In this document: positions 10,313 to 64,000 of the stretch, in pieces
Layout: each line of letters opens with the position of its first letter
Position numbering within the stretch: position 1 is the stretch's first letter
IMG/VR virus record: IMGVR_UViG_3300037067_004891
Coordinates: 256,001 to 320,000 of that record
Source: a virus
Taxonomy: Duplodnaviria; Caudoviricetes
Reading direction: 5' to 3' (one strand)
Length of the DNA stretch: 64,000 bases
Notes under the pieces: model-generated
What the model saw: the letters and a program-made list of their open reading frames with translations, nothing else
Told to the model about the DNA's origin: nothing
The model's database searches: none
Position numbers and translations under genes: made by a program

Positions 10313-10338
10313 TTTTAATACATTTTTATAAATTCTAT

Positions 10339-10388
10339 ATTTTTTATTGAAAGAGAACCACGAAGTCTTTAGCTTAGTGGTAGTTCAT
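10339..10388 (+). mobile_element. 50-nt chimeric IS200/IS605 scar (left end fused to right end within one hairpin)
   Basis: gaaagagaaccacgaagtc matches the left ends at 44718 and 54801; tttagcttagtggtagttca matches the right end at 17894. Confidence 0.75.
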
Positions 10389-15343: not shown

Positions 15344-17896
15344 ATGATAAGAACCGAAGTATTAAATAAAGAAAAACTATCTAATATCATATATAGTTAT
15401 GGTGAACCGTATGACTTTGATAAGAAAATAAAATATTTTCATTATTTTGATATTCGGTCATCACATTTGGACTATGATCCCAATGAAAAATATAAAGCCA
15501 GAACATATTTTGTCACCTTATTTGATGATGATGATATCATCGGATTAGCTAAATTACAAGAAAATCCATATAATCAACAAGGTTTATTTTGGATACAGTA
15601 CATTTCCATCGATGATAAACACCAAGGAATGAGATATTCAAAATATATTATTGATAGAATGATAAAATTTTGCAAAGAAAATAAATTTAAATTGAAAACA
15701 TCTGGTTATTCAACAAAAGGGTGGGAACGTCTAAGGGAATATCTTCATTTATCTGCGGGTGCAAATGATGTGGAATTAATTGATACCAAAGAAAAACCAG
15801 AATACGAAAACCACACTTCAATAGACACATTAGTTAATACAAAAGTCATAGATTTTAATAAAAAACCGTTGATTGTATATCATGGAACAAATAATAAATT
15901 CGATATTTTCGATATAAATATGATAAACACAAATGAGAAGAGTGGTGATTATATTGGTTCGGGAATATATTTCACACGTTATAAAGACACTGCATTAAAA
16001 TACGCAAAACAGGCGGTGAAAAAAGGTGGGGGTTTAGTAAATATTATATCGGCATATTTAAATATCGAACATCCATTAATTATAAATAACACATCAGATG
16101 CTCAAAAATTGAGAGATTTATTTGGCGGGGAATTTAATTATTTTTCTATTTTGGATGACAATCCAAATCTTATTAAAGATGAATTAATAAAATTGGGTTA
16201 CGATGGTTTAATAGACAATATGTATAATCAATATGCAGTATTTGAACCAAGTCAAATTAAAATAATTGATAATTCTGTATCATTACAAAATGAAAATATT
16301 GTTAGTTTTTCAAATTTCATTGTAAATGAAGAACATGACTACACCAAAGAATCCATTTTAAAATTTATAAAAGATAGAAATCTTTATTTAATGGATGGAA
16401 AATATTTGGAATTATATCATGGAACAGACCCAGCATCATATAGAAAAATAGAAAAATCTGGTAAATTAAAATCTGGTACATGGTTCGGGATAGATTATGA
16501 AACATCAAGAAGATATGGTTTAATGAGATTACACAGAGGTGAACCAGTGGTAATGAAGATTTATGTTGATATTGATTCCTTATATATATCAAGTGAATAT
16601 TTTATTGCTAAACACGATTTAAAGATGAACTTGATGTATGGTTCTGGTTCTAATGTTTATGAAAATAAAAATCCAAATATAAAATGCTATATTTGCGAGA
16701 ATAATAATACAAAAGAAGAAATGTTCATACCTGAAGATATATTAGAGTTTCACGATTTATTTACTCAGGCTGGTAAAAAACTTTTTTTAGTTGGGGGTTG
16801 TATCCGTGATTATATAATGGGTAAAACACCACATGATTATGATTTAGTAACTGATGCATCACCAGATGAGACTAAACAAATTTTAAAAAATTACAGAACA
16901 AATTTACAGGGCGCACATTTTGGTGTAATAAGAGTGTATACCGAAGATGAACCAAAGGGATATGAAGTAGCTTCTTACAGGCGTGATATCTCAAAAGGAC
17001 GCTCAAATAAAGGCGATGATCAAAAAGTTGAAATCGGTTCTCATATCACTATTAAAGATGATGTTTTAAGAAGGGACATAACTCAGAATGCGTTATTTTA
17101 TGATATTGGTAAAAAAGAAATAATAGATTTAGTTGGTGGTATAGAAGATATTAAAAATGGTATTATACGAGCTGTCGGTAATCCAATGGAACGATTCAAT
17201 GAAGACCGTCTTAGAATTTTGAGAGTTTTTCGTTTTTCAGCCCGTTCACGTTTTAAAATTGATGATGAAACAGCGAATGCTATAAAAAAGGACAACCGTC
17301 TGAACGGTTTATCACCTGAAGAAGATGTTTCCCAAGAAAGAATACTGGAAGAAATTTTTAAAATATGGGAATATGCATCCGAAAAAAATGATTTACCTGC
17401 TTGGAAACTATATCTCAAATATCTGACTGAGTTTAAAATGTGGAATCAGATGTTTAAAAACATGCTTATTAATGAGGATGTGATTAACATTGATAGTTTA
17501 GATTTAATTCAGATGTATACATATTTATTTCTGGATAATACTCCAGATACTGAATTTAATAAACGTTTGATTAGAACATTTAAATTTTCATCGGATAATG
17601 CTAATATAATTTGTTTTCTATTAACATTTTATAATAATATCAATGATGTCGATAAGGTGTTTGATATGAAAAAGAAACAAAACCAATTTGATATTGACCC
17701 GAATATTATAAAAGAATTTTCTGATATACATAAACTGGATAAAAAATTTACTGATAAATTCATTGAATATGATTTAACAGTATCAGGACAAGAATTAATG
17801 GATTCTGGACTAAAAGGAAATGAAATTGGTATAGAACAAAGGAAGCAAGAAAAAGAAATTTTTCAAAATATGATTAACGAATCTTTTGATTTTTGA
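15344..17896 (+). CDS. cca: Polyvalent fusion: GNAT + two ART-like domains + CCA-adding enzyme (class II tRNA nucleotidyltransferase)
   Basis: YISIDDKHQGMRY; LIVYHGT..GIYFT..GYDGL..VFEPSQIK; LYHGT; LVGGCIRD, DYDLVT, RRDITQNAL, EDRLRILR. Confidence 0.85.
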   Translation: MIRTEVLNKEKLSNIIYSYGEPYDFDKKIKYFHYFDIRSSHLDYDPNEKYKARTYFVTLFDDDDIIGLAKLQENPYNQQGLFWIQYISIDDKHQGMRYSKYIIDRMIKFCKENKFKLKTSGYSTKGWERLREYLHLSAGANDVELIDTKEKPEYENHTSIDTLVNTKVIDFNKKPLIVYHGTNNKFDIFDINMINTNEKSGDYIGSGIYFTRYKDTALKYAKQAVKKGGGLVNIISAYLNIEHPLIINNTSDAQKLRDLFGGEFNYFSILDDNPNLIKDELIKLGYDGLIDNMYNQYAVFEPSQIKIIDNSVSLQNENIVSFSNFIVNEEHDYTKESILKFIKDRNLYLMDGKYLELYHGTDPASYRKIEKSGKLKSGTWFGIDYETSRRYGLMRLHRGEPVVMKIYVDIDSLYISSEYFIAKHDLKMNLMYGSGSNVYENKNPNIKCYICENNNTKEEMFIPEDILEFHDLFTQAGKKLFLVGGCIRDYIMGKTPHDYDLVTDASPDETKQILKNYRTNLQGAHFGVIRVYTEDEPKGYEVASYRRDISKGRSNKGDDQKVEIGSHITIKDDVLRRDITQNALFYDIGKKEIIDLVGGIEDIKNGIIRAVGNPMERFNEDRLRILRVFRFSARSRFKIDDETANAIKKDNRLNGLSPEEDVSQERILEEIFKIWEYASEKNDLPAWKLYLKYLTEFKMWNQMFKNMLINEDVINIDSLDLIQMYTYLFLDNTPDTEFNKRLIRTFKFSSDNANIICFLLTFYNNINDVDKVFDMKKKQNQFDIDPNIIKEFSDIHKLDKKFTDKFIEYDLTVSGQELMDSGLKGNEIGIEQRKQEKEIFQNMINESFDF

Positions 17897-19285
17897 ACTA
17901 CCACTAAGCTAAAGACTTAGTAGTTTCCTGCGCTGACCTCGTAACCTCAGTCATATCTCGCAAGGCGTGAATTTCGGTCGTCCCAACCGTATTTTTAATT
18001 TTTGCAAAAGCAAATTTCTTTATATTATTTGCTGCATTGATATCTCTATCATGTTTAGTGTTACATTTAATACAAGTCCATTCTCTATCTTTTAGAGTTA
18101 ATTTATTATTGATATGACCACAAGAACACATCTTAGAACTTGGTTCAAATGTTCCAATTCTCAATATATTACATCCGTACCACTCAGCTTTATAAGTTAG
18201 CATTCTAACAAATTCTGACCAACTTACATCAGATATTGATTGAGCTAAATTATGATTCTTTATCATATTAGACACACTAAGAGTTTCTAAACATATAGTC
18301 TCATTATTATTTATTAAATTAGTTGACAATTTATGTAAGAAATCAACCCTTTTGTTTGAAATTTTTTCATGAGTCGATGATATCACTTTAATAGATTTCT
18401 TTATATTGATACTACCTTTTAATTTTTTAGAATGTTTCTTCTGTCTAATCTTCAACCTTCTCAATGACTCTTTTAAATACTTAGGATTGTCAATTACCAA
18501 ACAATCTGAAGTAACTAAAAATGATTTAATACCTAAATCAATACCAATAGCTTGTTTTTCACTTATCGGTGGCTTTACAGGTATTATATCATTATTTTGC
18601 ACTAAAATAGAAATATAATATTTATTATTTATTTTTGATATAGTAGAATTCTTTGTTATTCCTTCAAACCTCCTATCAATGATTATTTTAATCCCAGTTT
18701 TGAATTTTGGTAAATAAACCTTAGATTCTTCAAAATCAACAAATGTATTTGCTGGTATGCCAAAACTGTTTTTAGGATTTTTCTTTGATTTGAAATTAGG
18801 CTTTCCAATTGAATTTAATCTTTCTAAATTAATTTCTAAACCTTTAGACTTTCTACTGAAAATATATTGTTTTTTCTTCTTTTCAAGAACACCATTTTTA
18901 TTATCATGAAAAAACTTATTGAAAGCATTATCAAGATTCTCTAAACTATATTGTAATGATTGACTATTCACTTCTTTTAACCACTTTGTTTCTTCTTGCT
19001 TCTTTAATAAAGGTAAATCTTTTTGAATATCAAATCTGGATAGTGAGATGTTTTCTTCTTGGTATACTCTATTCTTTTTGTCAAGAGCATAATTATACAC
19101 CCACCTTACACAACCAAAATGTTTGTTAATCAAAATTTCTTGTTCTTGATTTGGATATATTCTATATTTATATGCTCTTAACACTTTTATTATAGTTATA
19201 TTTTTGGAAAAAGTTTACTATATTTTTATTTTTAATCAAAAATCATCTCACGAAACTAAAGACTTCGGAATTTTTGAAAATTTTA
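17893..19285 (-). mobile_element. IS200/IS605-family tnpB-only element (IS1341-like)
   Basis: Right-end hairpin actaagtctttagcttagt then ggtagttca; degenerate left-end hairpin at ~19249-19267; left boundary approximate. Confidence 0.8.
17904..19184 (-). CDS. tnpB: TnpB RNA-guided endonuclease
   Basis: AYKYRIYP HTH; GIDLG, ICLETL and HDRDINAA RuvC triad; Zn finger. Confidence 0.95.
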   Translation of the reverse strand: MLRAYKYRIYPNQEQEILINKHFGCVRWVYNYALDKKNRVYQEENISLSRFDIQKDLPLLKKQEETKWLKEVNSQSLQYSLENLDNAFNKFFHDNKNGVLEKKKKQYIFSRKSKGLEINLERLNSIGKPNFKSKKNPKNSFGIPANTFVDFEESKVYLPKFKTGIKIIIDRRFEGITKNSTISKINNKYYISILVQNNDIIPVKPPISEKQAIGIDLGIKSFLVTSDCLVIDNPKYLKESLRRLKIRQKKHSKKLKGSINIKKSIKVISSTHEKISNKRVDFLHKLSTNLINNNETICLETLSVSNMIKNHNLAQSISDVSWSEFVRMLTYKAEWYGCNILRIGTFEPSSKMCSCGHINNKLTLKDREWTCIKCNTKHDRDINAANNIKKFAFAKIKNTVGTTEIHALRDMTEVTRSAQETTKSLA

Positions 19286-21697: not shown

Positions 21698-23269
21698 ATG
21701 ATTATAAATGAAATAATTAATATAAAAATCCAATATAATAATATTCAACATTTTATTAATAAAGGTTATATTTGCAAGTTAGGTGATATATTATCAGTAA
21801 ACACAACAGATTTAACAGTAGGTTCACACGAGAAGATTCATGCGTGTTGCGATGATTGTTTAAAAAATAAGGTTGTGTTTAATCATTCATATCATAAAAT
21901 TTTTAAAAAATATAATAAATATTTATGTAAAAATTGTGTACAAAAAGAAAAAGAAAAAACAAATATTAAAAAATATGGAGTGAAAAATGTGATGAGTTCA
22001 AAAGAAATTCAAGATAAAAGAAAAGAATATTTTTTAGAAAAATACGATGTCACACATCCATGTAAAAATGAAAATATTAAAAATAAAATAAAACAAACTA
22101 ATATTAATAAATATGGTGTCGAATATTTAACTCAAAATGAAACAATATTAAACAAAATACAAAAAACTAATATTGATAAATATGGTAATATATGTTCGTT
22201 ACAAAATGAAAAAGTTATGAATAAAACCTTTAATACTATGCTTGATAAATATGGTAATAAATATTCTATGCAAAACGATATTATCAAAAATAAAATTTTA
22301 AGTAGTTCATTATCAACAAATGTAAATAAAACATTAAATAAATATAAAGATATAATAAAAATTGTTTATACAAATGGTGTTTTTGAAGCTAATTGTGATA
22401 CGGGTAAAAACCATACATACATCATTTCAACACATAATTATTATCAGAGAATATTATATAAAACTATAAAATGCACAATTTGTAATCCGATTGATAATTT
22501 AAGTTCTGGTTTAGAATTAGATTTTATAATGTTTATTGAATCATTAAATATAAATTTTATACACAAAGATAGAACTTCTATTAAACCACAAGAACTTGAT
22601 GTTTATATACCGAGTCATAAATTAGCATTTGAATTCAATGGTTTATATTGGCATAGTGATATATATAAAGATAATAATTATCATTTAAATAAAACAGAAA
22701 AATGTCTATCTAAGAATATCAGATTAATTCATATATACGAAGATGATTGGTTATATAAAAAAGATATTATAAAATCAAAAATTTTAAATATTTTCGATAT
22801 GAATGATAAAATAAACATTATTGACTGTACTATTAAAGAAATACATGATATAAAAATAATTAAAGAATTCATTAATAACAATGACTTAAAAAAATATAAA
22901 AAATCTAATATTAATTATTCGTTATTATATAAAAACAATATTATATTGATAATGTCTTTAAATATTGAAGATAATTTATGCACAATAAACAATATTACAA
23001 GCAGTTATTATTTAAATACGGATGACTGTGTTTATTTTCTTTTGAACAATATAATAAATAAATATAATATATCTAATTTTGTTTATATGTGTGATAGAGA
23101 TTGGTGTTATTCTGATTTAATATCTTCAATTGATTTCAAAGTGAATCAAATATGGAAACCCACATTTTCGTATATAAAAGATAGATATGAATATAAAAAT
23201 AACAATAAAGATTATAAAAAACTAAAAATATTCAACTCTGGACATATAGAATACATTTTAAATTTATAA
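21698..23269 (+). CDS. Putative homing endonuclease (KYGV repeats + PD-(D/E)XK)
   Basis: KYGV repeats, CTICNP, ELDVYIPSHKLAFEFNGLYWHS, IHIYEDDW. Confidence 0.75.
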   Translation: MIINEIINIKIQYNNIQHFINKGYICKLGDILSVNTTDLTVGSHEKIHACCDDCLKNKVVFNHSYHKIFKKYNKYLCKNCVQKEKEKTNIKKYGVKNVMSSKEIQDKRKEYFLEKYDVTHPCKNENIKNKIKQTNINKYGVEYLTQNETILNKIQKTNIDKYGNICSLQNEKVMNKTFNTMLDKYGNKYSMQNDIIKNKILSSSLSTNVNKTLNKYKDIIKIVYTNGVFEANCDTGKNHTYIISTHNYYQRILYKTIKCTICNPIDNLSSGLELDFIMFIESLNINFIHKDRTSIKPQELDVYIPSHKLAFEFNGLYWHSDIYKDNNYHLNKTEKCLSKNIRLIHIYEDDWLYKKDIIKSKILNIFDMNDKINIIDCTIKEIHDIKIIKEFINNNDLKKYKKSNINYSLLYKNNIILIMSLNIEDNLCTINNITSSYYLNTDDCVYFLLNNIINKYNISNFVYMCDRDWCYSDLISSIDFKVNQIWKPTFSYIKDRYEYKNNNKDYKKLKIFNSGHIEYILNL

Positions 23270-31848: not shown

Positions 31849-32231
31849 ATGAACTACCACTAAACCAAAAAATTTAGTGATTTCAGAAACTAATAGTTTC
31901 TTCTCTTTAAATGATTCACAGACTGTGCTTTATATAAAGCTAAAAAGCTTAAAGTCTTATTTTATCTCCACATAATCAGTCATCCCAACTGATATTAATT
32001 TTTAATTCAAAAACATATTCATTTCTAATAGGCTCTGACTAACAACATATTAAGTGATGGTTTTATTACTTTTATGATTTTATTTTAACTAAGTTTTTAG
32101 TTGAAAAACAGACAAATCAAAGAACTTAAAATAAAAACATATTTTATATATTAAAATGTTTTGATTTTGTTTTAAATTTTTGAAATTCATTCACGAAACT
32201 AAAGATTTCGTGGTATTCTTTTATAAAAAAT
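31849..32231 (-). mobile_element. Miniature IS200/IS605 derivative with both ends, a reRNA-like 3' region and no tnpB ORF
   Basis: Right end atgaactaccactaaa..tttagtg; left end tgaaattcattcacgaaactaaagatttcgtgg..aaaaat then ataaa. Confidence 0.8.
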
Positions 32232-37298: not shown

Positions 37299-38732
37299 TT
37301 AATATCCTAATTTTTTAATATTATTTTTAAATTCTTCTTCTATTTTATTTCCTTTTGAACTATTTAAATATTTTTTAGTCCAACATAAATTATTCGGATT
37401 AGATGCTTCCTCTATACTAATACCTTCTATAAAACATTCAAATAAAGATTTTTTATGGTCAATAGTTGGATATAATTTACTTGTAGGGTGAAATGAAAAA
37501 TTATTTTTGATGTAATAATCATCATAATAATCATATCCGTCCCAATCGTTTATTAGTTGTTTTTTAATTTTCTTAATATACGTATTGTTCGAATTTCTAT
37601 ATTTTCTAAATTTTGATATATTTTCTTCCAATACCCAAACGTTGTTTAATTCATTTGTTTTTCTTATCTTATTTTTTATTTCCACAGATTGAAATGGGTT
37701 TTTAAAACCAAATTTTTCTATATTAGTTTTAATCCTTTTTATATCACCACATTTTTTACAACCACAACCACGTAGATGAATATTAGAAGATTGTTTAAAT
37801 TTTCCATGTATTGGGCATATAATAACACTTTTGGTAGTATTGTTTATATAAATAAATTCAGAATAATCATAAAAAACCCCATGAACTTTATTTGAGTTTA
37901 ATTTAAAATCTTCATAAGTTAATACACACCCAGCGCATTTTGGACAATTTGTGTTTTGATTTATAAAATTATCATAAGTTGCTATCCATTCATACCCATC
38001 AATATCACATTTTAAATATATTTTTGAATCAACATTTTCATGAATATACGGATATAATAAAGTATACTTTTTTTCTTTACATTTATTGTAAATTTTCATA
38101 TTTGTATATTCAGATGATAATTTTAACTTACCGCCACATTTTGGACAACCCTGTTTTAAATTTATAAAATTATCATAAGATATATTCCATTCATATCCAT
38201 CAATATCACATTTTAAATAAATTCTTGAATCAATATTTTCATGAATATATGGCTGTAATAATGTATAATTTTTTTCTTTACATTTAGTTAAAATTTTAAG
38301 TTCAGTTTCTTCTTGTGTTAATTTTAATTTACCACTGCATTTATGACAATTTCTATCTTTATTTATAAAATTTTTATAACTTGAAACCCATTCATATTCA
38401 TCAATATCGCATTTTAAATATATTTTTGAATCAACATTTTCATGAATATATGGCTGTAATAATGTATAATTTTTTTCTTTACATTTAGTTAAAATTTTTC
38501 CTTCTGCTACTTCCTGTGTCAACTTTAACGAACCACCACACTTTGGACACCCAACATTTCTCATAAAATTTTTATAAGATATATTCCATTCATACCCATC
38601 AATTTTACATTTTAAATTTATTCTCGAATTCCCATTATCATGAAAATATGGTTTTAATAAAATATAATTTTTTTCTTTACATTTATTTAAAACATTTACT
38701 TCTGCTACTTCTTGTAATATTTTTGATGGCAT
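37299..38732 (-). CDS. Putative homing endonuclease with Zn-finger repeats and a C-terminal HNH-like domain
   Basis: Four LKCxIDxYEW..CxKC repeats; ICPIHG; PTIDHK..NNL..N. Confidence 0.75.
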   Translation of the reverse strand: MPSKILQEVAEVNVLNKCKEKNYILLKPYFHDNGNSRINLKCKIDGYEWNISYKNFMRNVGCPKCGGSLKLTQEVAEGKILTKCKEKNYTLLQPYIHENVDSKIYLKCDIDEYEWVSSYKNFINKDRNCHKCSGKLKLTQEETELKILTKCKEKNYTLLQPYIHENIDSRIYLKCDIDGYEWNISYDNFINLKQGCPKCGGKLKLSSEYTNMKIYNKCKEKKYTLLYPYIHENVDSKIYLKCDIDGYEWIATYDNFINQNTNCPKCAGCVLTYEDFKLNSNKVHGVFYDYSEFIYINNTTKSVIICPIHGKFKQSSNIHLRGCGCKKCGDIKRIKTNIEKFGFKNPFQSVEIKNKIRKTNELNNVWVLEENISKFRKYRNSNNTYIKKIKKQLINDWDGYDYYDDYYIKNNFSFHPTSKLYPTIDHKKSLFECFIEGISIEEASNPNNLCWTKKYLNSSKGNKIEEEFKNNIKKLGY

Positions 38733-38735
38733 TTA

Positions 38736-41700
38736 TTAATTTAATTTTTTAATTTCCCTTTTCAATTCTGATAAATCACCCAACCAAATTTCTTGTATAG
38801 TTTTTTTAGAATATTCTTCTAAATCTTTTAATTTATCCGATAATTGGTTTTTTAAATTATCATATTTTTCTTTAGATAGTGAATATATAACCATGTTTAA
38901 CAAGTAATCATAAGAATTATCTAACTTATCAAGCTTATTATTTTCACACTCTTGTTCAATATATTCTTTATTCTTATTAGATATCAAAATTTTATTATTA
39001 ATAATCAAATCAATAAAATTACATCTGTTTGTTAATATTTGGATATCCTTGTTTATTTTTCCAATTATATTCTGCCTACGTTGTTCATAAAAAGGTAAAC
39101 GGTTAATATAAAATTCATTAATTATATCATATACAGTATCATATTTTTTTATTTTACTATTTATATCAAATAAATGCATATTAGACATATTTATCCTCGA
39201 TGTTAATTGAAATAAATCATATAATTTATCATCTTTTATTGGATATTCTTTTGATAAATTGATTATTATATTAACGTCATCATCATTACATTTTTTAATA
39301 TAATTTTTAATGATTTTATTATCAATCAATTTATCTAAAAAATTATAGTAATTTTCATTCCAAGTACCAACTGGTAATTCAGTAATATTTAATTGATTAT
39401 CGTTAATTCTATTTATAATACCAGTTGTGATACAATTATCAACAGCTTCATCATATTGGATTTTACCTTTAAATTTATTATAAAAAGGTGTTAGGGTTAT
39501 ATTTTTTTTCTTATCTTTTAATTTATTTTCTAAATAAACAATCAAATCGTTTATATTAAATTTAGGTATAGTTGTTGAAAAACCCGTGCCTATCCCATTA
39601 CACCCGTTCACAAGTATTAAACATATACAAGGGATATAATATTGTGGTTCAACTATTTTACCATCCGATTCTAAATAATTTAAAAGTTCTTTATCAGAGT
39701 CTTTGAATATTGTTTTTGTTATTTGTCTTAATTCAGTATGAATATATCTTGCAGCAGCACTATCTTCACCACCATGTAACCGTGTTCCAAAACTACCAAT
39801 AGGTTCTATTAATGGCAAATTATTCGAACCCACGAAATCTTGCGCCATAGTTATTATAGCTTCTTCTAATGATTGTGGGCCATGATTGTAAATAGCAATG
39901 GACTTAACATACCCAAATAATTCTCCAACATTAATTTCACCACTTTTGTTTAATTTTAATAATGTGTATAATATTTTTCTTTGACTGGGTTTCAAACCAT
40001 CCATAATATTAGGAACGTTACGCACAACATCAAAAAGAGAATATTCTATAAATTCATTATTCATAAAACTTTCATAAGTGGTCTTTTGGGATAACTTATC
40101 AAAATTATTGTTGATATCATATTCACCCATCCATTTTTTTCTATCGTCAGCCCTGTTTTTTCTAAAAGCTAAATCAATTACATCTTTTGTTTTTTCTGGA
40201 TTAGTATAATGAAATTTAATTAAATGTTTATCTATATTTTCAAAAACCATTTTAACTTCATCCTTACTAAGAGTACCCAAACCTTTAAAATGTTTTATAG
40301 TATAACCCGTTAAATCATTAGTATCTTTCCATTTATCATAATCTTTTATTTTATAAAAATACTTATGCTTGCCATTTTTTGTTATTCTTAATATAGGGGT
40401 TATAAACTCATACATAAAATTATTCAATAGAGAAGGAAAGAACATTTCTATGTAATTTAAAATCAAACCTTTGATGTGATACCCATCACAATCGGCATCC
40501 GTCATTAATACCAGTTTACCATACCTTAATGACGAAGTATCAGTATATTTTTTACCATATTCCAATCCCAATATTTGTGCTATATTAGAAAGTTCTTCGT
40601 TTTGTTTTAATTTTGAAATAGATATATCACGAACATTTATCGGCTTTCCTTTTATTGGAAAAGACCCATAGTAATCTCTACCTGTATATTTAAACCCAGA
40701 TACTGCAAAACTTGATGCACTATCACCTTCAGTAATAAATAGAAAACATTTATCTGATTCTTTTGTGCCAGCTTTATTAGCATCTACTAATTTTTGAACT
40801 TTTGGTGTTTTATTATTTTTATTCTGAACTGATTTTTTTAAAGCTAATTGTTCTTTAAGTTCAATATAATCTAAAATTTCCTGAGTAATATCAGATTTCA
40901 GTATTTTCTTAATAAAATTATCAGAAATTTCAACGTCTTTAAAAGTTGACACTTTTGTATTTAATATTTCTTTAACCTGACTATCAAATTCTGGATTAAA
41001 AATTTTTGAATTTAAAAATAAAAATATTTTTGACTTAATATCATTAGGGTTTATTTCAAACTTATTTCCTCTTGAAAGAGAAACTTTTAATTTACTTGTA
41101 ATTTGATTTATAATATAATTAACATGTGTTCCCCCTTGTAAGGTTGCTAATCCATTAACTAATGAAATTTGTTCGAATGAATCAGTTGATGTTTTCATAA
41201 TACCAACTTCCCAGAAATCATTTATTTTTTCATAAATAATTTCTTGATCATCTGGCATGAACAATTTCATATAATCTTTAAAAGTTTTAATATTAATCAA
41301 GTTATTATTAAAATATACTTTGACATTCGGATTATAAGCAGCTATATCAATGGTTCTTTTTATCATTACGGATTTGATATCATCAGTTAATTCAGTGAAC
41401 CCAAACCGTTCATAATCTGGTAAAAAAGATATTTTGGTAAACTTCTTAGAAGTTGCTCTGATATGAGGTTTTGGTAATTTACCCTTTTTATCTGTTGATA
41501 AATTATCGGTGAATACTTGTTTATAATAATTTTTTCCATCGGCAGTTTCAACCATGAACTCTTTGGAGAATATATTACATGCCTTAGAACCAATTCCATT
41601 ACGCCCACCCCCAATACGTTGTTCTGTATCATCATAATTTTCGCCAGTTAAAAGATGACCAAAAATTAATTCAGGAACATATACTTTTTCGTCCTTATGT

Positions 41701-43057: not shown

Positions 43058-43082
43058 ATGAACTACCGCTAAACTAAAAGAT

Positions 43083-44243
43083 TTAGCGGTTTCCTACTTC
43101 GCAGACTTCGTAACCTCCGTCTCCATAGGTGTACTCGCCAGTTCCTGACGAGAGAAGGTTTAAACCTTCTGTTTCAATATTTTTAGCAGCATTTAAATCT
43201 CTATTATGTTTCTGACCACATATCGGACATTCCCATTGTCTTATATTTAATGGTAAGTCTTGTAATATATGTTTACACTTATGACATGTTTTTGATGATG
43301 GAAACCATCTGCTTATCTTTACCAGTTGCTTATCATTCCAGTCAGATTTATATTTTAAATATGTTAAAAATGCCCCCCAAGACACATCGGATATTGATTT
43401 ACTTAGTTTATCATTTTTTAACATACCTTTAATATTCAAATCTTCACAACAAATAATATCGTAATGACTGATTAAACGGGTACTTACTTTATGCAGCATA
43501 TCATTCCGAGAATTGACTATCTTCTCATGAATTCTTGCTACTTTAATTCTTTCTTTATTTTTATTATTACTTCCCTTTTTTTTCCTACTTAAATGTTGTT
43601 GCTCTCTCTTTAATTTCTTTTGATATTTAATTGTGTATTTATGATTTTCAAATTTATTATCATCTGATGTTATTACAAAATCTTTTAAACCCAAATCAAT
43701 ACCTACCGACTTCCCTGTCTTTTCTTTCGGTTGATATTCAACTTCACAAAGAAAGCTTATGTAATATTTACCTACTGGTGTTTTTGAAATGGTGCAGTTT
43801 CTTATATTTGTTATTTCAACGTTCTTCTGATTTACTTTAATACCTTCTTTAAATTTGGGTAAGAATACCTTTTTATCTATTAGTTCAATGTGTTGAGGGA
43901 TATGGAACGAATTCTTATCTTTTCTGGATTTGAATCTTGGAAACTGGGCTAACTTTTTAAAGAAATTAATATATGCTGTATCAAGGTGTCTTAAAGAATG
44001 TTGTAATGATTGACTATTAACTTCTTTTAGCCAAATATATTCTTCTTTCTTTTTAAGTTCAGTTAAATATTCTGCTTGTTTATAATAATTTAAAGTCTTA
44101 TTACCTTTTAAATATTCATCTTTTCTCTGGTTTAAAAAATAATTAAAAATGAATCTATTACAACCAAAATGTTTATTCAACAAAATTTCTTGTTGTTTGG
44201 TTGGTTTTAATTCAAATTTATATGTCTTTTTTATAACCTTCAT
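43083..44243 (-). CDS. tnpB: TnpB RNA-guided endonuclease
   Basis: GIDLG, CCEDL, HNRDLNAA; CHKC and CPIC Zn finger. Confidence 0.95.
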   Translation of the reverse strand: MKVIKKTYKFELKPTKQQEILLNKHFGCNRFIFNYFLNQRKDEYLKGNKTLNYYKQAEYLTELKKKEEYIWLKEVNSQSLQHSLRHLDTAYINFFKKLAQFPRFKSRKDKNSFHIPQHIELIDKKVFLPKFKEGIKVNQKNVEITNIRNCTISKTPVGKYYISFLCEVEYQPKEKTGKSVGIDLGLKDFVITSDDNKFENHKYTIKYQKKLKREQQHLSRKKKGSNNKNKERIKVARIHEKIVNSRNDMLHKVSTRLISHYDIICCEDLNIKGMLKNDKLSKSISDVSWGAFLTYLKYKSDWNDKQLVKISRWFPSSKTCHKCKHILQDLPLNIRQWECPICGQKHNRDLNAAKNIETEGLNLLSSGTGEYTYGDGGYEVCEVGNR

Positions 44244-44301: not shown

Positions 44302-44705
44302 ATGTCTAAGTATTACAGAGAAAACCACTCAAAGTATATAATTAAATGTCATTTAATATTTGTATGTAAATACAGGAAACATCTGTTATTTGGTTCTTTG
44401 GATATGCACATGAAACAAATTATGTTAGATATATCAACGAAATCTGATTTTGATATTGAAGTAATGGAAACTGATAAGAATTATATATTCATTTCTTAAT
44501 ATGTTATCCACCGAAATTATCATTAACTTCAATTGTGAGAAGATTAAAACAAATTTCAACTATTAATATCTGGCATCTATATCCAAATTATTTACAACAA
44601 CATTTTTGGAAAGAACACACTTTCTGGTCTGATAGTTACTTTGTGTGTTCAATAGGTGATGCAAACCCAGATAATATTAGGAAATATATTGAGCAGCAAG
44701 GTTAA
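44302..44705 (+). pseudogene. tnpA: IS200 Y1 transposase, frameshifted
   Basis: HLIFVCKYRK, then a frameshift near 44482 with HUH reading YIH; continues HFL..PP..FWSDSYF..IRKYIEQQG*. Confidence 0.9.
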
Positions 44706-47515: not shown

Positions 47516-49198
47516 ATGGTAGAATTCGAAGATGGTAAATATCAGCTTTATTATGAATTGAAATATGAACCCCGACAACAACAAATAGACGGGGTTAATT
47601 TTATTAAAAAAGCTATATTAACTGGTAATAAATATATGTTGTTGAACTTGCCCACTGGTGTTGGTAAGAGTTTCTTGGCTACTATGTTCATAAACTGGTA
47701 TCTAAATCATGTTAATGAAAAAGCTAAGTTTGATGTCCTGACTAATTCTAAGTTACTACAAGACCAGTATATAAAGGAATTTCCATATATACGGAATTTA
47801 AAAGGACGAGCCAATTATCCTTGTGACCCATATAATACAAATTGTGATGAGGGTATGGAAATTTGTACCGCTAAAAAGAAAAAATGTGATAGATGTCCAT
47901 ATTTGTTAGCTTTATCAAATTATATTGGAAGTCGAGTTTCAATGACTAATTTTCACATGTTTGATATTGCAAATATTTTCAGTACTTGTTTTAAGACTGT
48001 TAGAGAAAGTAAAGTTTTAATTGTAGATGAAGCTTCAGATTTTGATCAAGTTTTTTGTAATTATATGACAACAGAATTAAATGTTAATGTTTTTACAAAA
48101 TGTGGTTTCGAACAAACAAAAATAAATGAATATAAAAATATTATTTCATCTATTGTTGATATCACAACACTTGTTGATGTTATTATAAAAAATTTTTTAC
48201 CAGATTTGGATAAAAGAATTAAATATTTAAGATCAGAAATGTTGGATGCTGATCAACATAGTAAATCAACTCCAATTGATACATATAAAAAATGGGCTGC
48301 TCAGTCAAGAGAATGTTCTTCTAAATTTAATTCTCTGGATTTATTTATAAAAGAATTTCAAAACAATCCTGAAAATTGGTTTTTAGAAACTATTAATAAA
48401 TATGATAAAAGAAAAAAAGAATCTGGTGAATTTAAATCTTTGATTGTACAACCAGTTTGGGGAAGTGAATATATACCAAAATATGCTCTGAATCAATATG
48501 ACCATATTATATTTATGTCTGCTACCATATTAAATAAAAAATTATTTTGTTATATTAATGGACTGAATGAAGATATAACCAAATATTATGAAATACCTTC
48601 ACCATTCCCTGTTAAAAACAGACCTATTTATTATATCAAAGCTGGTAAAATGACTTATAAAGAAAAAGAAAATAGTTACAAATATCATTTTGATTATATT
48701 ATAAAAACTTTAAATAAATATAAGAACGATAAAGGTATTATACACACATTCAATTATGAACTGGCTACAAGGTTGAGTGATGACTTGAATAAAACGGAAT
48801 TTAAAGATAGAATTATTATTCATGATACTGCAAGTAGAAATGATAAATTAGATCAGCATATTAATAGTAAACTACCAACTGTTTTGATTTCTCCGAGTAT
48901 GATGATGGGTGTGGATTTAAAAGATGAATTAAGTCGTTTTCAGATAATAATGAAAATACCATATCCAAATATAAAATCTAAGTTGGTAAAGAAAAGACAA
49001 CAAACAAATCCAGATTGGTATCGATGGAAAACAATTGTAGATTTAGTTCAGCAATATGGTAGAAGTGTGCGTTCATCTGAGGACTGGGCTATTACTATCA
49101 TTCTGGATAGTTCTCTATCAGACATATTAAATTTTCACGGAGAATTTTTACCTAAATATTTTGTTGATGCTATTAAGATAATGAAGATTAAATATTAA
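47516..49198 (+). CDS. dinG: DinG/XPD-family SF2 helicase with Fe-S cysteines
   Basis: PRQQQ, PTGVGKS, KGRANYPC..C..C..CPY, VDEAS, MSAT, GVDL, QQYGRSVRS. Confidence 0.9.
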   Translation: MVEFEDGKYQLYYELKYEPRQQQIDGVNFIKKAILTGNKYMLLNLPTGVGKSFLATMFINWYLNHVNEKAKFDVLTNSKLLQDQYIKEFPYIRNLKGRANYPCDPYNTNCDEGMEICTAKKKKCDRCPYLLALSNYIGSRVSMTNFHMFDIANIFSTCFKTVRESKVLIVDEASDFDQVFCNYMTTELNVNVFTKCGFEQTKINEYKNIISSIVDITTLVDVIIKNFLPDLDKRIKYLRSEMLDADQHSKSTPIDTYKKWAAQSRECSSKFNSLDLFIKEFQNNPENWFLETINKYDKRKKESGEFKSLIVQPVWGSEYIPKYALNQYDHIIFMSATILNKKLFCYINGLNEDITKYYEIPSPFPVKNRPIYYIKAGKMTYKEKENSYKYHFDYIIKTLNKYKNDKGIIHTFNYELATRLSDDLNKTEFKDRIIIHDTASRNDKLDQHINSKLPTVLISPSMMMGVDLKDELSRFQIIMKIPYPNIKSKLVKKRQQTNPDWYRWKTIVDLVQQYGRSVRSSEDWAITIILDSSLSDILNFHGEFLPKYFVDAIKIMKIKY

Positions 49199-49240
49199 AG
49201 TTTCTGAAATCACTAAGTCTTTAGCTTAGTGGTAGTTGAT
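49199..49240 (+). mobile_element. Solo IS200/IS605 right-end remnant
   Basis: agtttctgaaatcactaa is identical to the 31849 element (minus strand); then hairpin and tagttgat. Confidence 0.7.
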
Positions 49241-53306: not shown

Positions 53307-53612
53307 GTCAACTACCCCTTGGTTAAAGACCAAGGGGCTTGAACCGTGAGGGTTAAGAGTAATTAGTTGATTAGGTGGCTTTTAAAAATTAAAATTAATT
53401 AATTTTAAGTGCAGAAGTTTAAAGGAAAGTTAAAGAACATACCAAGAAATGCTTCACAAGTTTCTTGCTCTATAAGTTCACAGTTAAACAAAGAAGAAAT
53501 TCTTAGTGCTGTGAGTGGGTGCAAAGCCTTCGGCTTTGACACCAGACTGACTTTAAACAACACCGAAGTGAATGAACGTCAAACAAAGAACAGACAGGTC
53601 TTACCGACATAT
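53307..53612 (+). ncRNA. IscB omega-RNA scaffold (guide supplied by the 5' flank)
   Basis: ccccttgg/ccaagggg hairpin, tcaacta/tagttga pairing, agaaa/tttct stem; lies upstream of the PLMP-like motif; 3' boundary approximate. Confidence 0.7.
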
Positions 53613-54794
53613 GTGTTCGTTTTAAGTTTAGAAGGTCAAATTTTAATGCCTACTAAAGCCTCAAGAGCAAGAAGATTCATTAAAAATGGTAAAGCTGTTA
53701 TTATTAAAAAATATCCTTTCACAGTCCAGTTGACTGTTGAGTGTGATTCTCACACTCAACCTATCTCACTGGGAATCGATACTGGTTATGGTTTTATAGG
53801 ATTTTCAGCTACAACAAAAACAAAAGAATTATTATGTGGGACACTTAAACTGGATGGAAAAACAAAAGAAAGATTAGATGAAAAAAGAATGTACAGACGA
53901 CTTCGAAGAAGTCGTCACCACTGGTATAGAGAACCAAGGTTTGATAACAGAAAAAGAAAAAATGCTTGGTTACCACCGAGTGTTGAAAGAAGATATCAGA
54001 CACATTTAAATTTAATTCAAAGAATTAAATGTTTATTACCTATAACAGATGTAGTTATAGAGACAGCTAAATTTGATATACAAAAAATTGATAGACCAGA
54101 GATAAAAGGAATTAATTATCAACAAGGTAACAGGTATGATTATCAAAACGTTAGAGCATATTTAATGGTAAGAGAAAAAGGTTGCTGTCAATTTTGTTCT
54201 AAAGATTTTAAAGGACAACCAGCTCATTTACATCATATTAAACCACGTTCTAAAAGAGGTTCTGATAAGACATCAAATTTAGCACTATTACATGAAAAAT
54301 GTCATAACATTTTACATGAGAAACATTTAGAGGATAGTTTAAAATCAAATTCTAAAAATTATAAACCGAATACTTTTATGTCAATCATAAACAAAAGATT
54401 TTATGTTGACGTACCAGAGGTGAAAGTGACCTTCGGTCACGTCACCTTTGTGAACAGAAACGCTTTAAATATTGAGAAAAGTCATTTCAACGATGCTTTT
54501 GTTATTTCGGGTGGTAGTAAACAAATGAGATCAAAACCTGTTAACATTATACAAAAACATAGAAATAATAGAGTTATACAACTGAATAGGAAGGGCTTGC
54601 GCCCTTCCATCAGAAAGGAAAGATACAAAATTCAACTTCTTGATTTATTTTGGGTTGGTAAGAAAAAATATATTTCTAAAGGTGTTATGAACAAAGGTTT
54701 GTACGTTACTTTTGAAACAAAGGAAAAGAAGAATTATATTAAAACAGAAAATGTAAATAAAATATACAATTTTGGTAGCTTTGTTTGGTGTTGA
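53613..54794 (+). CDS. iscB: IscB RNA-guided nuclease (probable start GTG at 53613, not 53409)
   Basis: GQILMP, LGIDTG, RRLRR bridge helix, VIETAKFD, HHIKPRS.GSD..N...CH HNH, KSHFNDA. Confidence 0.93.
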   Translation: MFVLSLEGQILMPTKASRARRFIKNGKAVIIKKYPFTVQLTVECDSHTQPISLGIDTGYGFIGFSATTKTKELLCGTLKLDGKTKERLDEKRMYRRLRRSRHHWYREPRFDNRKRKNAWLPPSVERRYQTHLNLIQRIKCLLPITDVVIETAKFDIQKIDRPEIKGINYQQGNRYDYQNVRAYLMVREKGCCQFCSKDFKGQPAHLHHIKPRSKRGSDKTSNLALLHEKCHNILHEKHLEDSLKSNSKNYKPNTFMSIINKRFYVDVPEVKVTFGHVTFVNRNALNIEKSHFNDAFVISGGSKQMRSKPVNIIQKHRNNRVIQLNRKGLRPSIRKERYKIQLLDLFWVGKKKYISKGVMNKGLYVTFETKEKKNYIKTENVNKIYNFGSFVWC

Positions 54795-54898
54795 AAATCT
54801 GTGAAATTCATCCACGAAGCTAAAGACTTCGTGGTTTTCTTTCACAAAAATATAAAAATGTGTAATTTTTTTCATAACAAATTTATATTAGGATGAAT

Positions 54899-55152: not shown

Positions 55153-55565
55153 AGTTATTTAGTGTGTTTTTATTTAAAATTAATCTCCTTTTTTTTTTTG
55201 AATATGTTGATACATTTTCAAAGGTGTATATGAATATTCATTTTTGTATCTTTATATAGTTTAATTGGATTTATAGATTTTATATCAATACCTAATATTT
55301 ACCCAATCATCGATATCATTTCTGAATTTTAATGTTATATTTTTTTCTTTATATTTTATATTTTTTATTATATATTAATTGTATGCGGTCATGATAAACG
55401 TAACTTTTTTATTGCGTAAAACGTAAAATCTACGATTCAAATATAATTTGGATATTTCTTTGAATATTTTTAATTATTTTGAATATTTTTTGTAGGATTT
55501 TTTTTATAATAATAAAGGTTTTATATTTGTCACGTACAATAATTACAAACTAAAAATATACAATT

Positions 55566-57005
55566 ATGAAAACAATGAAAAATTTAATCTTAGCTTTAAC
55601 CCTGATAACAGGGATGATTTTTTTTACAAGTTGTGAAAAAGATGATGATTTCAATCCAATTGATCAGATTGAAAATCCTATTGATACTGTTAATAACCCT
55701 ATTGATACTGTTAATAACCCTATTGATACTATCAATAACCCTATTGATACCGTTAACAATCCTGTTGGTTATGTTCGCACATATGTTCACGAATTTGATT
55801 TTGTTGACATCAGCAAACTTCAGATTTTCAAACAAACCGATGGTACAGTTGACTCAATTTTTAAATTCAATGATGTTGATACAACTTTCATTACTCCTGA
55901 GTTCGGTAAAATAACTGCAAAAGATGGTAGCAAAACTACAACCTTCTCCACTATCGAATCAATCGAAAACGTGGGTGACTATATGAAGATTACTGCCGAT
56001 TTCGCAACTGGTCTTAAATCAGCAGGTGCAATGTCAACTGTTATGGTTGAAAAAGAAACTGGAGAAATTTCAACTGTTGCCGAAACTCCTGTTACCGATG
56101 GTGAATATGTAGTGATACCTAATAACGATTGGACTTGGGTTAATAATGCTGGTATATCTGTTACATTTACTGATAACGCTACTACTAAAACTGGTTCGGT
56201 TATTAATATTAATACTGCTGAATTTATTAATTTGATAACTGCTAATATTGCCGATTTTTATAATACAACTGGTTATGGTGTATCTGAACCTTTTCAGTTT
56301 GCATGTTCAAAAACTGTTAAAGATGCAAATGGTAATGTTTATGGTTATGTTACCTTTTCTCCGAATTCAACCGATGCATCAAATTTTGTAACTGTTGTTC
56401 AACTTATGACTGGTTCATCATTAACATTAAATTATGTAAAGACAAGTAATAAAGCAGAAATTCATTATGTTAATTCTTTTACTCTTATCGTAAATGATAA
56501 TTTAGACTTAGTGACTTATGGTTACACACCTGATATGCGTTCTTTAGTAAAAGGTAACAAAATTATATCGCAGATTAATACAGGAACACTTGATAGTTAT
56601 ACTTGGATGAAAGGTTATATGTATGCTCCTTCTTTTACAATATATGATAAAAATAACAATACATTAAACGCTTTTGCTAATCCATCTAATGTAAGCGGTG
56701 ATGGTTATAACAATCAAAAACTTACTTCTAAGATGATTTTATTCGGTGACTATATTTATTATGTAACTGAAGAAAGTGGTTCTAATTATGTAACTAAGAT
56801 TCAGATTAGCACAATCAATACAACAAGTCAATTCAATGTTGAAAAATTAGGAACAAAAACAATCAACTCTGCAATCGAATCAGTATTTACAACAGAAAAT
56901 GGTTACTTCATCTTAACAAGTGGTACAACTAACTACTTTATTTATGAAGATGGTCATATGGAAACTAAAACTGCCACTGATGCAGGTGATGTGATTGAGT
57001 TCTAA
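55566..57005 (+). CDS. Bacteroidota-type surface lipoprotein
   Basis: Signal peptide II ..FFTSC followed by EKDDD; TATATTTG at 55522. Confidence 0.8.
   Translation: MKTMKNLILALTLITGMIFFTSCEKDDDFNPIDQIENPIDTVNNPIDTVNNPIDTINNPIDTVNNPVGYVRTYVHEFDFVDISKLQIFKQTDGTVDSIFKFNDVDTTFITPEFGKITAKDGSKTTTFSTIESIENVGDYMKITADFATGLKSAGAMSTVMVEKETGEISTVAETPVTDGEYVVIPNNDWTWVNNAGISVTFTDNATTKTGSVININTAEFINLITANIADFYNTTGYGVSEPFQFACSKTVKDANGNVYGYVTFSPNSTDASNFVTVVQLMTGSSLTLNYVKTSNKAEIHYVNSFTLIVNDNLDLVTYGYTPDMRSLVKGNKIISQINTGTLDSYTWMKGYMYAPSFTIYDKNNNTLNAFANPSNVSGDGYNNQKLTSKMILFGDYIYYVTEESGSNYVTKIQISTINTTSQFNVEKLGTKTINSAIESVFTTENGYFILTSGTTNYFIYEDGHMETKTATDAGDVIEF
55674..55765 (+). repeat. 21-nt coding tandem repeat (NPIDT[VI]N x4)
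   Basis: aaccctattgatactgttaat units. Confidence 0.85.
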
Positions 57006-57023
57006 AAGAAATTGAATTATAAG

Positions 57024-57054
57024 AAAAAACCCATCAATTTTTGGTGGGTTTTTT
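57024..57054 (+). terminator. Intrinsic terminator
   Basis: aaaaaacccatcaa..ttggtgggtttttt. Confidence 0.75.
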
Positions 57055-57083
57055 ATAATATATAACAACAAAAAATATCTGAA

Positions 57084-57479
57084 ATGAAAAAACATATACT
57101 TAAAATAAACGAGTTTAAAGAACACACTGACCAACATTTGACTGAACAGGAATTACTTGAAATGTCAAATTATCGTGGTGAGAATTTTGGTATAGAAGGT
57201 AATGTTGTTTTATGGATTGGTTCTGTTTTATCATCACAACATCCAGATGGTAATAGAATAAAAGTGAGTAATTTACCAAATAAGGGAACAAGGGATACTT
57301 TTACTATCACTATACCTAAATTAGAAGTAATCGGGAAAGTAAACACAAAACACATTACTACTAAAAAATTGAACAATATTTTTGAATTCATTAAATTAAA
57401 CATGGATTTGATTATCGCTTTTTGTCAAGAAGATATTGACGGTTATGATTTTGCTCAAAACGTTAAAAAATTAGAGTAA
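57084..57479 (+). CDS. Hypothetical protein with leader-like N-terminus
   Basis: MKKHILKINEF..LLEMSN; TAATATATA at 57056. Confidence 0.6.
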   Translation: MKKHILKINEFKEHTDQHLTEQELLEMSNYRGENFGIEGNVVLWIGSVLSSQHPDGNRIKVSNLPNKGTRDTFTITIPKLEVIGKVNTKHITTKKLNNIFEFIKLNMDLIIAFCQEDIDGYDFAQNVKKLE

Positions 57480-59153: not shown

Positions 59154-60390
59154 CTTGTTTTTCTTTTTGCTCGTTTTGGTATGTGTGAACATATTTCATC
59201 GAGCCAATTATGTTTTAATGCAGAATTATAAGCACCATTAAATATTTTTTCTATTTCTTTTCTGGATTTACATTTTAATGCTGCTTCTTGATATTTTTCT
59301 TTTGTCCAATATCTATTTGGTTTTTGTATTGAATCATATGAGAACATATTTCATTAAGCCACTGAAAATCACATGATTTTTTATAAGCAGTGCCAAATTT
59401 TCGATTAAATTCTTTTCTGGATTTACATTTTAAAGCTACTTCTTGACATTTTTCTTTTGTCCAATAATATTTTGGTTTTTGTGTTGGTAACATATGAGAA
59501 CATATTTCATCTAACCAGTTATTTTTTAAAGAACTACCATATGACCCACTATATTTTCTTATAAAATCTGTTTTTGATTTACATTTTAATGCAGCTTTTT
59601 TACAAGATTCTTTATTCCATTTCATATAACCACCTAATGCTCCAGCTTTGGCTTTATTTAATAAATTCCAATTGTTGTTTTTATATAAATTAATATAATA
59701 TTCTTCTTCAATTTGTGCATTTTTCACATCTAATAACTCAGTTAAAATTATATTTTTTGGTATCAAATTTGTTTTTATTATATGTTTTAAAACAGGGCTT
59801 TTTTTATTGTTTAAATGATATTTTTTTCTTTTTTCTATATTACAAGTTAAACCGATATACATTGATTTATCTTCAAATTCCCATGCATAAATAAATCTTT
59901 TATATATATTTCCTAATAATATCATATGAGAACATATATCATCTAACCACTTATTTTTTCGACTAACGGTATAAGCTGTTTTATATTTTGTACCAAATTC
60001 TTTTCTGGATTTACATTTTAATGCTGCTTCTTTACATCTTTCTAAAGTCCAATACCCCTTTGGTTTATGAATAAAAAACATATGCTTACAATATTCATCA
60101 AGAAGACCATTAATTCTGATAATATTATAAACTTTATTATATTCTTTTTGTAATTCAAATCTGTTTTTATAATTTGATGCGATTTCTTTACATCTTTCTA
60201 AAGTCCAATACCCCTTTGGTTTGTTAATATAATCTAAATGCGAACACAATTCATTAATCCATCTCTTTGAAACAATTTTATTATAAACAACTTTATATTT
60301 TTTATTTAATTCTTTTCTGGATTTACATAGTGATGCAACTTCTTTACATTTATCATATGTCCAATATCCATTTGGTTTTCTTTCTTTCAC
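59150..60390 (-). CDS. GIY-YIG homing endonuclease with WTxExC repeats; frameshift in the last repeat (~59335)
   Basis: FIYAW..MYIGLT..R...H; repeats YWTKEKC..ALKCKSRKEF..WLDEICSH continue in the 59150-59347 frame. Confidence 0.8.
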
Positions 60391-63611: not shown

Positions 63612-64000
63612 ATGAGTAAACAAAAATATTGGATTAAAGAAAAATGTCAGGAAGAAGTATTAAAATATAATAGTTTCGCCGAATTAAAAGAAAAAAATTC
63701 AAAGGTTTATTATATTATATATGAAAATAAGTGGTGTTCAGAAGTATGTGCGCATTATTATTTAAATAGAAAACCTTCTAATTATTGGACAAAAGAAAGA
63801 TGTCAAGAAGAAGCATTAAAATATAAAACATGTAAAGAATTTAGAAAATTTTCTGGTAGTGCATATACACAATCTATTAAAAACAAATGGATATGTGATA
63901 TTAATAAGCATTTTTTAAAAACAAAACACCATAATAATTATTGGACAAAAGAAAACTGTCATATAGAGTCTTTAAAATATAATATAAAAACTGAATTTCA
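63612..64000 (+). CDS. Partial homing-endonuclease-like protein with WTxExC repeats
   Basis: MSKQKYWIKEKC..YWTKERCQEEALKY..; runs off the window end. Confidence 0.7.
   Translation, partial: MSKQKYWIKEKCQEEVLKYNSFAELKEKNSKVYYIIYENKWCSEVCAHYYLNRKPSNYWTKERCQEEALKYKTCKEFRKFSGSAYTQSIKNKWICDINKHFLKTKHHNNYWTKENCHIESLKYNIKTEF

Follow-up and report, generated by a model that had tools for sequence, protein, structure and literature searches.

In IS605- and IS1341-type elements, the omegaRNA of TnpB (also called reRNA) consists of the 3' end of tnpB together with the right end of the element, and its guide is taken from the flanking DNA. Elements of this kind can also persist without a nuclease gene. 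Palindrome-associated transposable elements (PATEs) of IS200/IS605 are known from Geobacillus stearothermophilus; according to Meers et al. 2023 (PMC10055086), they often carry an omegaRNA, which a TnpB has to use in trans. Likewise, transposon homing against co-infecting phages is treated as a category, under the name 'transposon non-restorative homing', in a 2026 review (PMC13565253). The central idea of a first-pass annotation of the DNA studied here was already in the literature, namely that a guide-only miniature supplies a stand-alone reRNA that a TnpB encoded elsewhere loads in trans and directs against element-free alleles of co-infecting phages. The passages of PMC10055086 and PMC13565253 that we consulted contain no mention of an own promoter or of a boxA-like structured leader. 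What appears to be new is the huge-phage setting, the dedicated promoter and a boxA-like structured leader that is confined to TnpB-less copies.

We analysed a window of 64,000 nucleotides, bases 256001-320000 of the IMG/VR record IMGVR_UViG_3300037067_004891, which belongs to a Caudoviricetes huge phage; positions are those of the window unless given as genome positions. The record has 421,673 bp and 25.7% G+C, with a completeness of 59% by CheckV (41% of the genome is missing). Synteny around the locus is shared with two sister phages (640 and 676 kb), and a megablast search with 6 kb around the miniature retrieved no match among GenBank phages. Besides the miniature, the window contains two tnpB elements, E1 (tnpB at 17904-19184, minus strand) and E2 (tnpB at 43083-44243, minus strand), and an IscB element at 53307-54864, with a HEARO RNA at 53307-53577 and an RRXRR and HNH protein at 53409-54794. 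The single Y1_Tnp domain of the 421-kb record lies inside E2, in an IS200-type TnpA gene that is divergent from tnpB (44302-44705, plus strand) and whose ORF is broken by stop codons into pieces of 65 and 56 aa; intact TnpB ORFs number seven in the record.

Like the Geobacillus PATEs, the element described here is a miniature without a protein gene that exists in many copies and shares its ends with TnpB and IscB elements of its own genome, and its sequence suggests that it retains an omegaRNA for a TnpB made elsewhere. Unlike them, it resides in a huge phage instead of a bacterial chromosome and has its own promoter word and boxA-like leader. Our preferred reading, to which we assign a probability of roughly 0.6, is that it is a non-autonomous, gene-less IS200/IS605 PATE from a lineage with a self-contained guide-RNA cassette, the RNA of which would be used by TnpB in trans. 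Independently of how the RNA is used, we are confident that the miniature is a PATE carrying an omegaRNA cassette.

Ends, target and gene content of the miniature

The miniature is a 383-nt IS200/IS605 derivative lacking a protein gene, at 31849-32231 on the minus strand. The first-pass annotation had recognized both IS ends and a TTTAT target, and they are indeed located where it placed them: the element starts at 32231, immediately after the target or transposon-adjacent motif TTTAT (32236-32232, minus strand), which is directly 5' of the left end, and it finishes at 31849. We compared ten left ends from this genome and from the 640-kb sister phage (L016); each follows TTTAT (8) or TCTAT (2), with constant spacing to the hairpin. 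The left end (32231-32192) contains the subterminal hairpin CACGAAATCTTTAGTTTCGTG at 32212-32192, which is common to the miniature, E1, E2 and the IscB element and has seven matches in the window versus 0.01 expected. The right end, TTAGTGGTAGTTCAT at 31863-31849, has six matches in the window versus 0.17 expected; it closes with the terminal word GGTAGTTCAT and finishes in TTCAT, which is related to the TTTAT target. Genome-wide, we found 27 right-end-like and 28 left-end-like sites, and approximately 20 copies with paired ends; many copies occupy unrelated sites.

That the element has no tnpB ORF, as also annotated, was borne out by an absence of internal ORFs longer than 33 aa and of any match to a TnpB query, remnants included. 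Rfam searches of the window at permissive thresholds assigned no family to the miniature or its leader, the sole match being HEARO at the IscB element. They likewise retrieved no intron family, and we discarded an IStron, a group I intron fused to IS605, as a candidate.

The empty junction for this insertion would be TTTAT|AATGAATTTAAAATG, and we did not find it in the two sister phages or in a metagenome scan, which yielded an identical contig ending inside the miniature plus more distant relatives. The sister phages provide no clean empty site because the genes upstream of the adjacent NADAR gene, whose identity to their homologues is 81-87%, differ there.

Other traces of the same ends are dispersed through the window and the record. 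An ultra-short remnant at 10323-10388 (plus strand) consists of TCTAT followed by an element of about 50 nt at 10338-10388, which joins the 5' part of the left end to a hybrid left/right hairpin and GGTAGTTCAT. At 49171-49240 (plus strand), a right-end piece alone (GTTTCTGAAAT, hairpin, GGTAGTTGAT) directly follows a stop codon. Of 20 right ends in the genome, 12 adjoin a convergent gene at its 3' end or extend into it; for example, the ORF at 15344-17896 terminates inside the right end of E1 (17893-17896). On the opposite strand the right end reads ATGAAC or TTGAAC, and an insertion can thereby supply a TGA stop codon. The IscB element lies on the strand opposite to the orientation defined by TnpA; its hairpin at 54813-54833 is of the left-end type of the tnpB elements and is followed by ATAAA. 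Finally, a 3'-truncated tnpB (residues 2-274) at genome positions 144412-145384 is 50% identical to the sister-phage TnpB and has a left-end hairpin, with no right end or scaffold found nearby.

The omegaRNA scaffold and its occurrence without tnpB

A complete TnpB omegaRNA scaffold of 148 nt occupies 31996-31849 on the minus strand, with the right-end hairpin at 31879-31858 and GGTAGTTCAT at its terminus. Through a 16-nt word from the miniature we reached a complete TnpB element in the 640-kb sister phage (L016/L038), where the homologous sequence comprises the last codons of a 413-aa TnpB and the right end. When both elements are aligned, the first ca. 90 nt of the miniature, corresponding to the left end, match and the last 147 nt align convincingly; its middle part is not derived from tnpB.

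TnpB relatives of the L016/L038 protein were retrieved from IMG/VR and their 3' ends were cut out, of which 15 were aligned and folded. The alignment of these TnpB-linked 3' ends supports 37 pairs in six helices, with compensatory double changes in 27 of the 37 pairs. A covariance model built exclusively from TnpB-linked sequences, with no miniature included (R1), matched the miniature at 31849-31996 with 88 bits (E 2e-16) across model positions 1-138 of 138, and this was the best match in the window. The words tcagttgggatgactga, tggagat and gtctgtgaa, the terminal hairpin and TTCAT align column by column with the TnpB-linked omegaRNA regions. The first-pass annotation was therefore right that the final 150 nt or so keep the layout of tnpB 3' regions, all the features it named being present. 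Its proposed comparison with the reRNAs at 17893-17990 and 43058-43160 was nonetheless misdirected: R1 scores E1 with 38.7 bits and E2 with 51.7 bits, indicating that both are other, shorter scaffold types, and the real relative is the L016/L038 TnpB element. A weak right-end-like match of the model was also seen in the IscB element, at 53307-53409 (minus strand).

The four best scaffolds in the record are all TnpB-less (110.7, 88, 81.4 and 79.6 bits), the top one (genome positions 340077-340225) belonging to an intact paralogue at genome positions 340053-340478. The scaffold of the miniature resembles a TnpB omegaRNA in its position, its helix order, its conserved single-stranded words and its terminal hairpin, and 35 of its 37 pairs are standard. 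It differs in that it overlaps no tnpB frame, belongs to no Rfam family, has a 4-nt deletion in the junction that follows the first stem and has one stem longer by 16 nt, this extension being a hairpin that covaries between paralogues. Single-sequence folding of the miniature was unremarkable (z of -1.85 and -1.09). Candidate pairings of leader GCCTACC and TGTGCC with scaffold GGTAG and GGCACA were dropped because they do not covary in relatives; a putative pseudoknot of the junction UUAC with the terminal GUAG is put forward here as an idea.

The junction deletion, between 31974 and 31973, corresponds to model positions 24-27. It removes A24 and C25, which are invariant in the 15 independently retrieved scaffolds, and cuts a long-range stem from five pairs to three. 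This junction stretch has nine residues in all 68 further complete scaffolds among the matches listed and five in the miniature; the deletion is thus unique to this copy, the junction being kept in 83 other complete scaffolds (15 plus 68, among the matches listed). An assembly error is unlikely, since a second metagenome contig is identical across the deletion. Erosion is also evident in the 3' part of the leader (32061-31997, minus strand), which is degenerate, reading GCCTATT..GAATATG versus GCCTACC..GGATGTG in relatives. The miniature is thus somewhat eroded and its cassette may work poorly or not at all; that this particular copy yields a working guide seems to us doubtful, if a real possibility.

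We evaluated how often such scaffolds occur without tnpB by a pattern scan of IMG/VR followed by the covariance model, which yielded at least 82 scaffolds. Among those listed, 24 end a TnpB-sized ORF and 36 do not, with 20 more at contig edges and two linked to partial ORFs; 31 of these 36 orphans, among the matches listed, lack a same-strand TnpB remnant up to 1.6 kb away. Among these matches, TnpB-less scaffolds were at least as common as TnpB-linked ones in this sample of phage contigs, which was retrieved by pattern and is not unbiased. Among the matches listed, the 26 distinct orphan sequences have 91.8% standard pairs and compensatory changes in 33 of 37 pairs, the respective values for TnpB-linked copies being 94.4% and 29 of 37; these figures derive from an alignment fitted to the model and from sequences chosen by pattern, and the orphan covariation may be inherited from TnpB-linked ancestors. 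Most orphans elsewhere score 97-133 bits (among the matches listed) versus 88 for the miniature. Similarity searches for the left-end hairpin of each orphan with its own right-end hairpin mostly failed, and by eye several have a left-end hairpin of different sequence.

The promoter word and the boxA-like leader

From the left to the right end, the miniature is arranged as a TnpA-type hairpin, a promoter word, a boxA-like word with a structured hairpin, and the omegaRNA scaffold. The promoter-like word TTTTAATATATA (32156-32145, minus strand) points to the right end and includes an exact TTTAATATATA at 32155-32145, which is aimed at the scaffold and whose next start codon is 323 nt away. TTTAATATATA is the commonest upstream motif of the phage, with 80 copies in the 421-kb record, 72 of them non-coding, and for 48 of the 80 a gene starts on the same strand 1-45 nt downstream (mostly 20-30 nt). 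The extended profile of the word has a T-rich upstream and an A-rich downstream part; it contains no -35 element, positions -18 to -40 being uninformative. These positions and this profile make TAATATATA, as highlighted in the first-pass annotation, a credible promoter core. Of the longer phage motif AAAC-N18-TATA that had been proposed, the promoter word directed toward the right end stands, and the AAAC-N18 portion falls away, as it carries no information genome-wide. A scan for the promoter word with two mismatches was uninformative in this AT-rich DNA.

About 20 nt beyond the promoter word there is a boxA-like word, AAGTTCTTTGAT with the core GTTCTTTGA (32127-32116, minus strand), followed by a leader stem of TGGTT/AATCA type that encloses a hairpin (32115-32062, minus strand; AACTAA-AAAC-TTAGTT in the miniature). 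This conserved leader between promoter and scaffold was absent from the first-pass annotation. The core, in a GTTC(T/A)TTGA form, does not vary among the 10 leader-bearing miniatures compared, which come from different contigs. Sixteen pairs are predicted in the leader, seven of them with compensatory double changes across ten sequences, and in the miniature's own copy the outer stem contains a single U-U mismatch. The leader is shared with paralogues of this genome and with TnpB-less scaffolds of at least seven other phage contigs; none of the 17 leaders in the DNA examined has a tnpB within 1.7 kb downstream. In another phage contig (L159:3190-3445, plus strand), the same promoter and boxA-like leader stand in front of a shorter scaffold of another type (49 bits), and the leader hence seems to be modular, being associated with more than one type of omegaRNA.

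The boxA consensus is AUGAUCUUUGAAA in the rrn leaders of B. subtilis and UGCUCUUUAACA in E. coli (PMC13753749). GTTCTTTGA matches both published cores. There are 13 non-coding G[TCA]TCTTT[GA]A sites in the record, five in miniatures and four in a tRNA array, and the exact GTTCTTTGA appears nine times in the non-coding fraction versus fewer than one expected, as estimated from base composition. The tRNA array (eight genes at genome positions 55404-57282, outside the window) contains GTTCTTTGA four times, always on the sense strand: three copies immediately follow tRNA genes, and the fourth separates a TATAAT-like promoter from tRNA-Ser. Such a distribution is what one would expect if the word served antitermination in untranslated RNAs. 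Searching the literature for the boxA-like word yielded primer lists alone.

BoxA antitermination signals reportedly occur in the leaders of CRISPR arrays as well as in rRNA operons (Stringer et al. 2020). Like these, the miniature has a promoter-proximal G-N-UCUUU-G/A-A in what is predicted to be an untranslated RNA; unlike them, the context here is a transposon guide RNA, for which NusB/NusE binding and an effect on Rho would be presumed by analogy. The omegaRNA of a full element is contained in a translated message and a stand-alone omegaRNA is not, which would explain why the leader is confined to TnpB-less copies. This confinement raises the testable idea that a guide RNA that is not translated depends, like CRISPR arrays, on a boxA-type safeguard against termination.

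Trans use of the guide and alternative readings

The would-be guide flank, AATGAATTTAAAATGTAATG (31848-31829, minus strand), is part of the 5' UTR of the NADAR gene; the role as guide is attributed from the known layout of TnpB omegaRNAs. The first-pass annotation had given this flank, aatgaatttaaaatgtaatg, correctly, with NADAR 27 nt away; the distance is 26 nt. The target would be TTTAT plus AATGAATTTAAAATGTAATG. Because TTCAT stands before the guide match when the site is occupied, self-cutting would be avoided, and in the sister phages the 5' UTR is diverged and offers neither an empty site nor a cuttable target. No cognate TnpB for the miniature's scaffold was found in the 421-kb record, which represents 59% of the genome. 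The TnpB of the record closest to the sister-phage protein is that of E2, which is 55% identical and has a different scaffold, and the site syntenic to that of the sister-phage element is unoccupied in this genome and too diverged to show an empty site. A cognate TnpB could come from the part of the genome that is missing (41%), from the host or from co-infecting relatives.

We propose that the cassette would be transcribed as an untranslated RNA, which the boxA-like leader would shield from Rho-type termination, a job that translation would do for the omegaRNA of a full tnpB element. A TnpB of the sister-phage type would then bind this RNA in trans, and the complex would cut TTTAT plus the guide sequence, either at the empty site left after excision or in an element-free allele of a co-infecting genome, with recombination after the cut copying the element back. 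As in homing by the free-standing endonucleases of T-even phages, the proposed benefit is the cutting of an element-free allele in a co-infecting genome, whose repair copies the element; unlike those endonucleases, the miniature would supply only the guide and not the nuclease. A broader version of this proposal is that such 'promoter, boxA-like leader, omegaRNA' cassettes are old, self-maintaining guide-only parasites of AT-rich huge phages, borrowing both TnpA and TnpB, replacing the protection given by translation with a Nus-type leader and biasing inheritance between co-infecting genomes; we offer it as speculation, with the odds clearly against it. If true, guide-only elements would parasitize RNA-guided transposon nucleases at one more level, the address coming from one element and the nuclease from another. 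The miniature family could also serve as a natural source of omegaRNA cassettes that are compact and come with a promoter, and its many variants would suit structure-function studies of TnpB guides.

Three other readings have to be weighed against trans use of the guide. The likeness to tnpB 3' regions could be a chance product of AT-rich DNA, and the repeats ordinary terminators or REP-like sequences. On the plus strand, the left-end hairpin does resemble an intrinsic terminator with a T-rich run, and one follows the iscB ORF at 54801-54845. A non-transposon origin is nevertheless hardly credible, given that TTTAT stands at a fixed distance from the hairpin and that the ends are paired in about 20 copies, and we consider it refuted by the homology to a complete sister-phage element and by the full-length match (E 2e-16) to a model that never saw a miniature. 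A more serious contender, if still rather unlikely, is that the miniature is a real PATE in decay, whose RNA would, if produced, have lost the ability to fold or to bind TnpB, and which persists as a harmless insertion in a 5' UTR. The unique 4-nt deletion, which takes away conserved junction residues and shortens the long-range stem by two of its five pairs, agrees with such an inert relic, and so do the degenerate 3' part of the leader, the score of 88 bits versus 110.7 for the paralogue and 97-133 for most orphans elsewhere (among the matches listed), and a 421-kb record with a broken TnpA and no cognate TnpB. Against it, the promoter word is exact, the boxA-like word and both ends are intact and nearly all scaffold pairs (35 of 37) are standard, and 41% of the genome is missing.

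The miniature could instead be a mobile promoter and antiterminator cassette that mainly drives the NADAR block, through a termination-resistant polymerase leaving via the right end. The NADAR-domain gene (31822-31400, minus strand; PF08719, E 5.7e-23) is the first of a minus-strand block opposite a divergent plus-strand gene, and 26 nt separate its ATG (31822), which is on the strand of the element, from the right end. In the gap between the two genes, the sole exact promoter word on the minus strand is that of the miniature; in the sister phages NADAR is preceded by same-strand genes instead. No T run follows the right-end hairpin, making read-through into NADAR plausible. However, a one-mismatch promoter word exists upstream of the miniature (32309-32299), and a gene start is faced by just 8 of 20 right ends in the genome and by two of the five leader-bearing copies, indicating that promoter donation is not a family trait. 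Retention of a full omegaRNA scaffold would also be left unexplained. As a main function, driving the NADAR block thus seems improbable to us; the miniature possibly supplies the NADAR promoter, and read-through from its promoter into the block is likely a side effect of a guide-RNA cassette, which we continue to favour.

The window also contains other repeats. An ORF with a GIY-YIG domain (59275-60390) has repeats of ca. 155 nt inside and beside it (59181-60363), with inverted copies at 63622-63982. Repeats of 69 nt (2231-2540 and 21936-22295) are common to two ORFs 19.6 kb apart, and an ORF of 477 aa at 37299-38732 includes four repeats of about 200 nt (37930-38750), the last of which continues into the next ORF.
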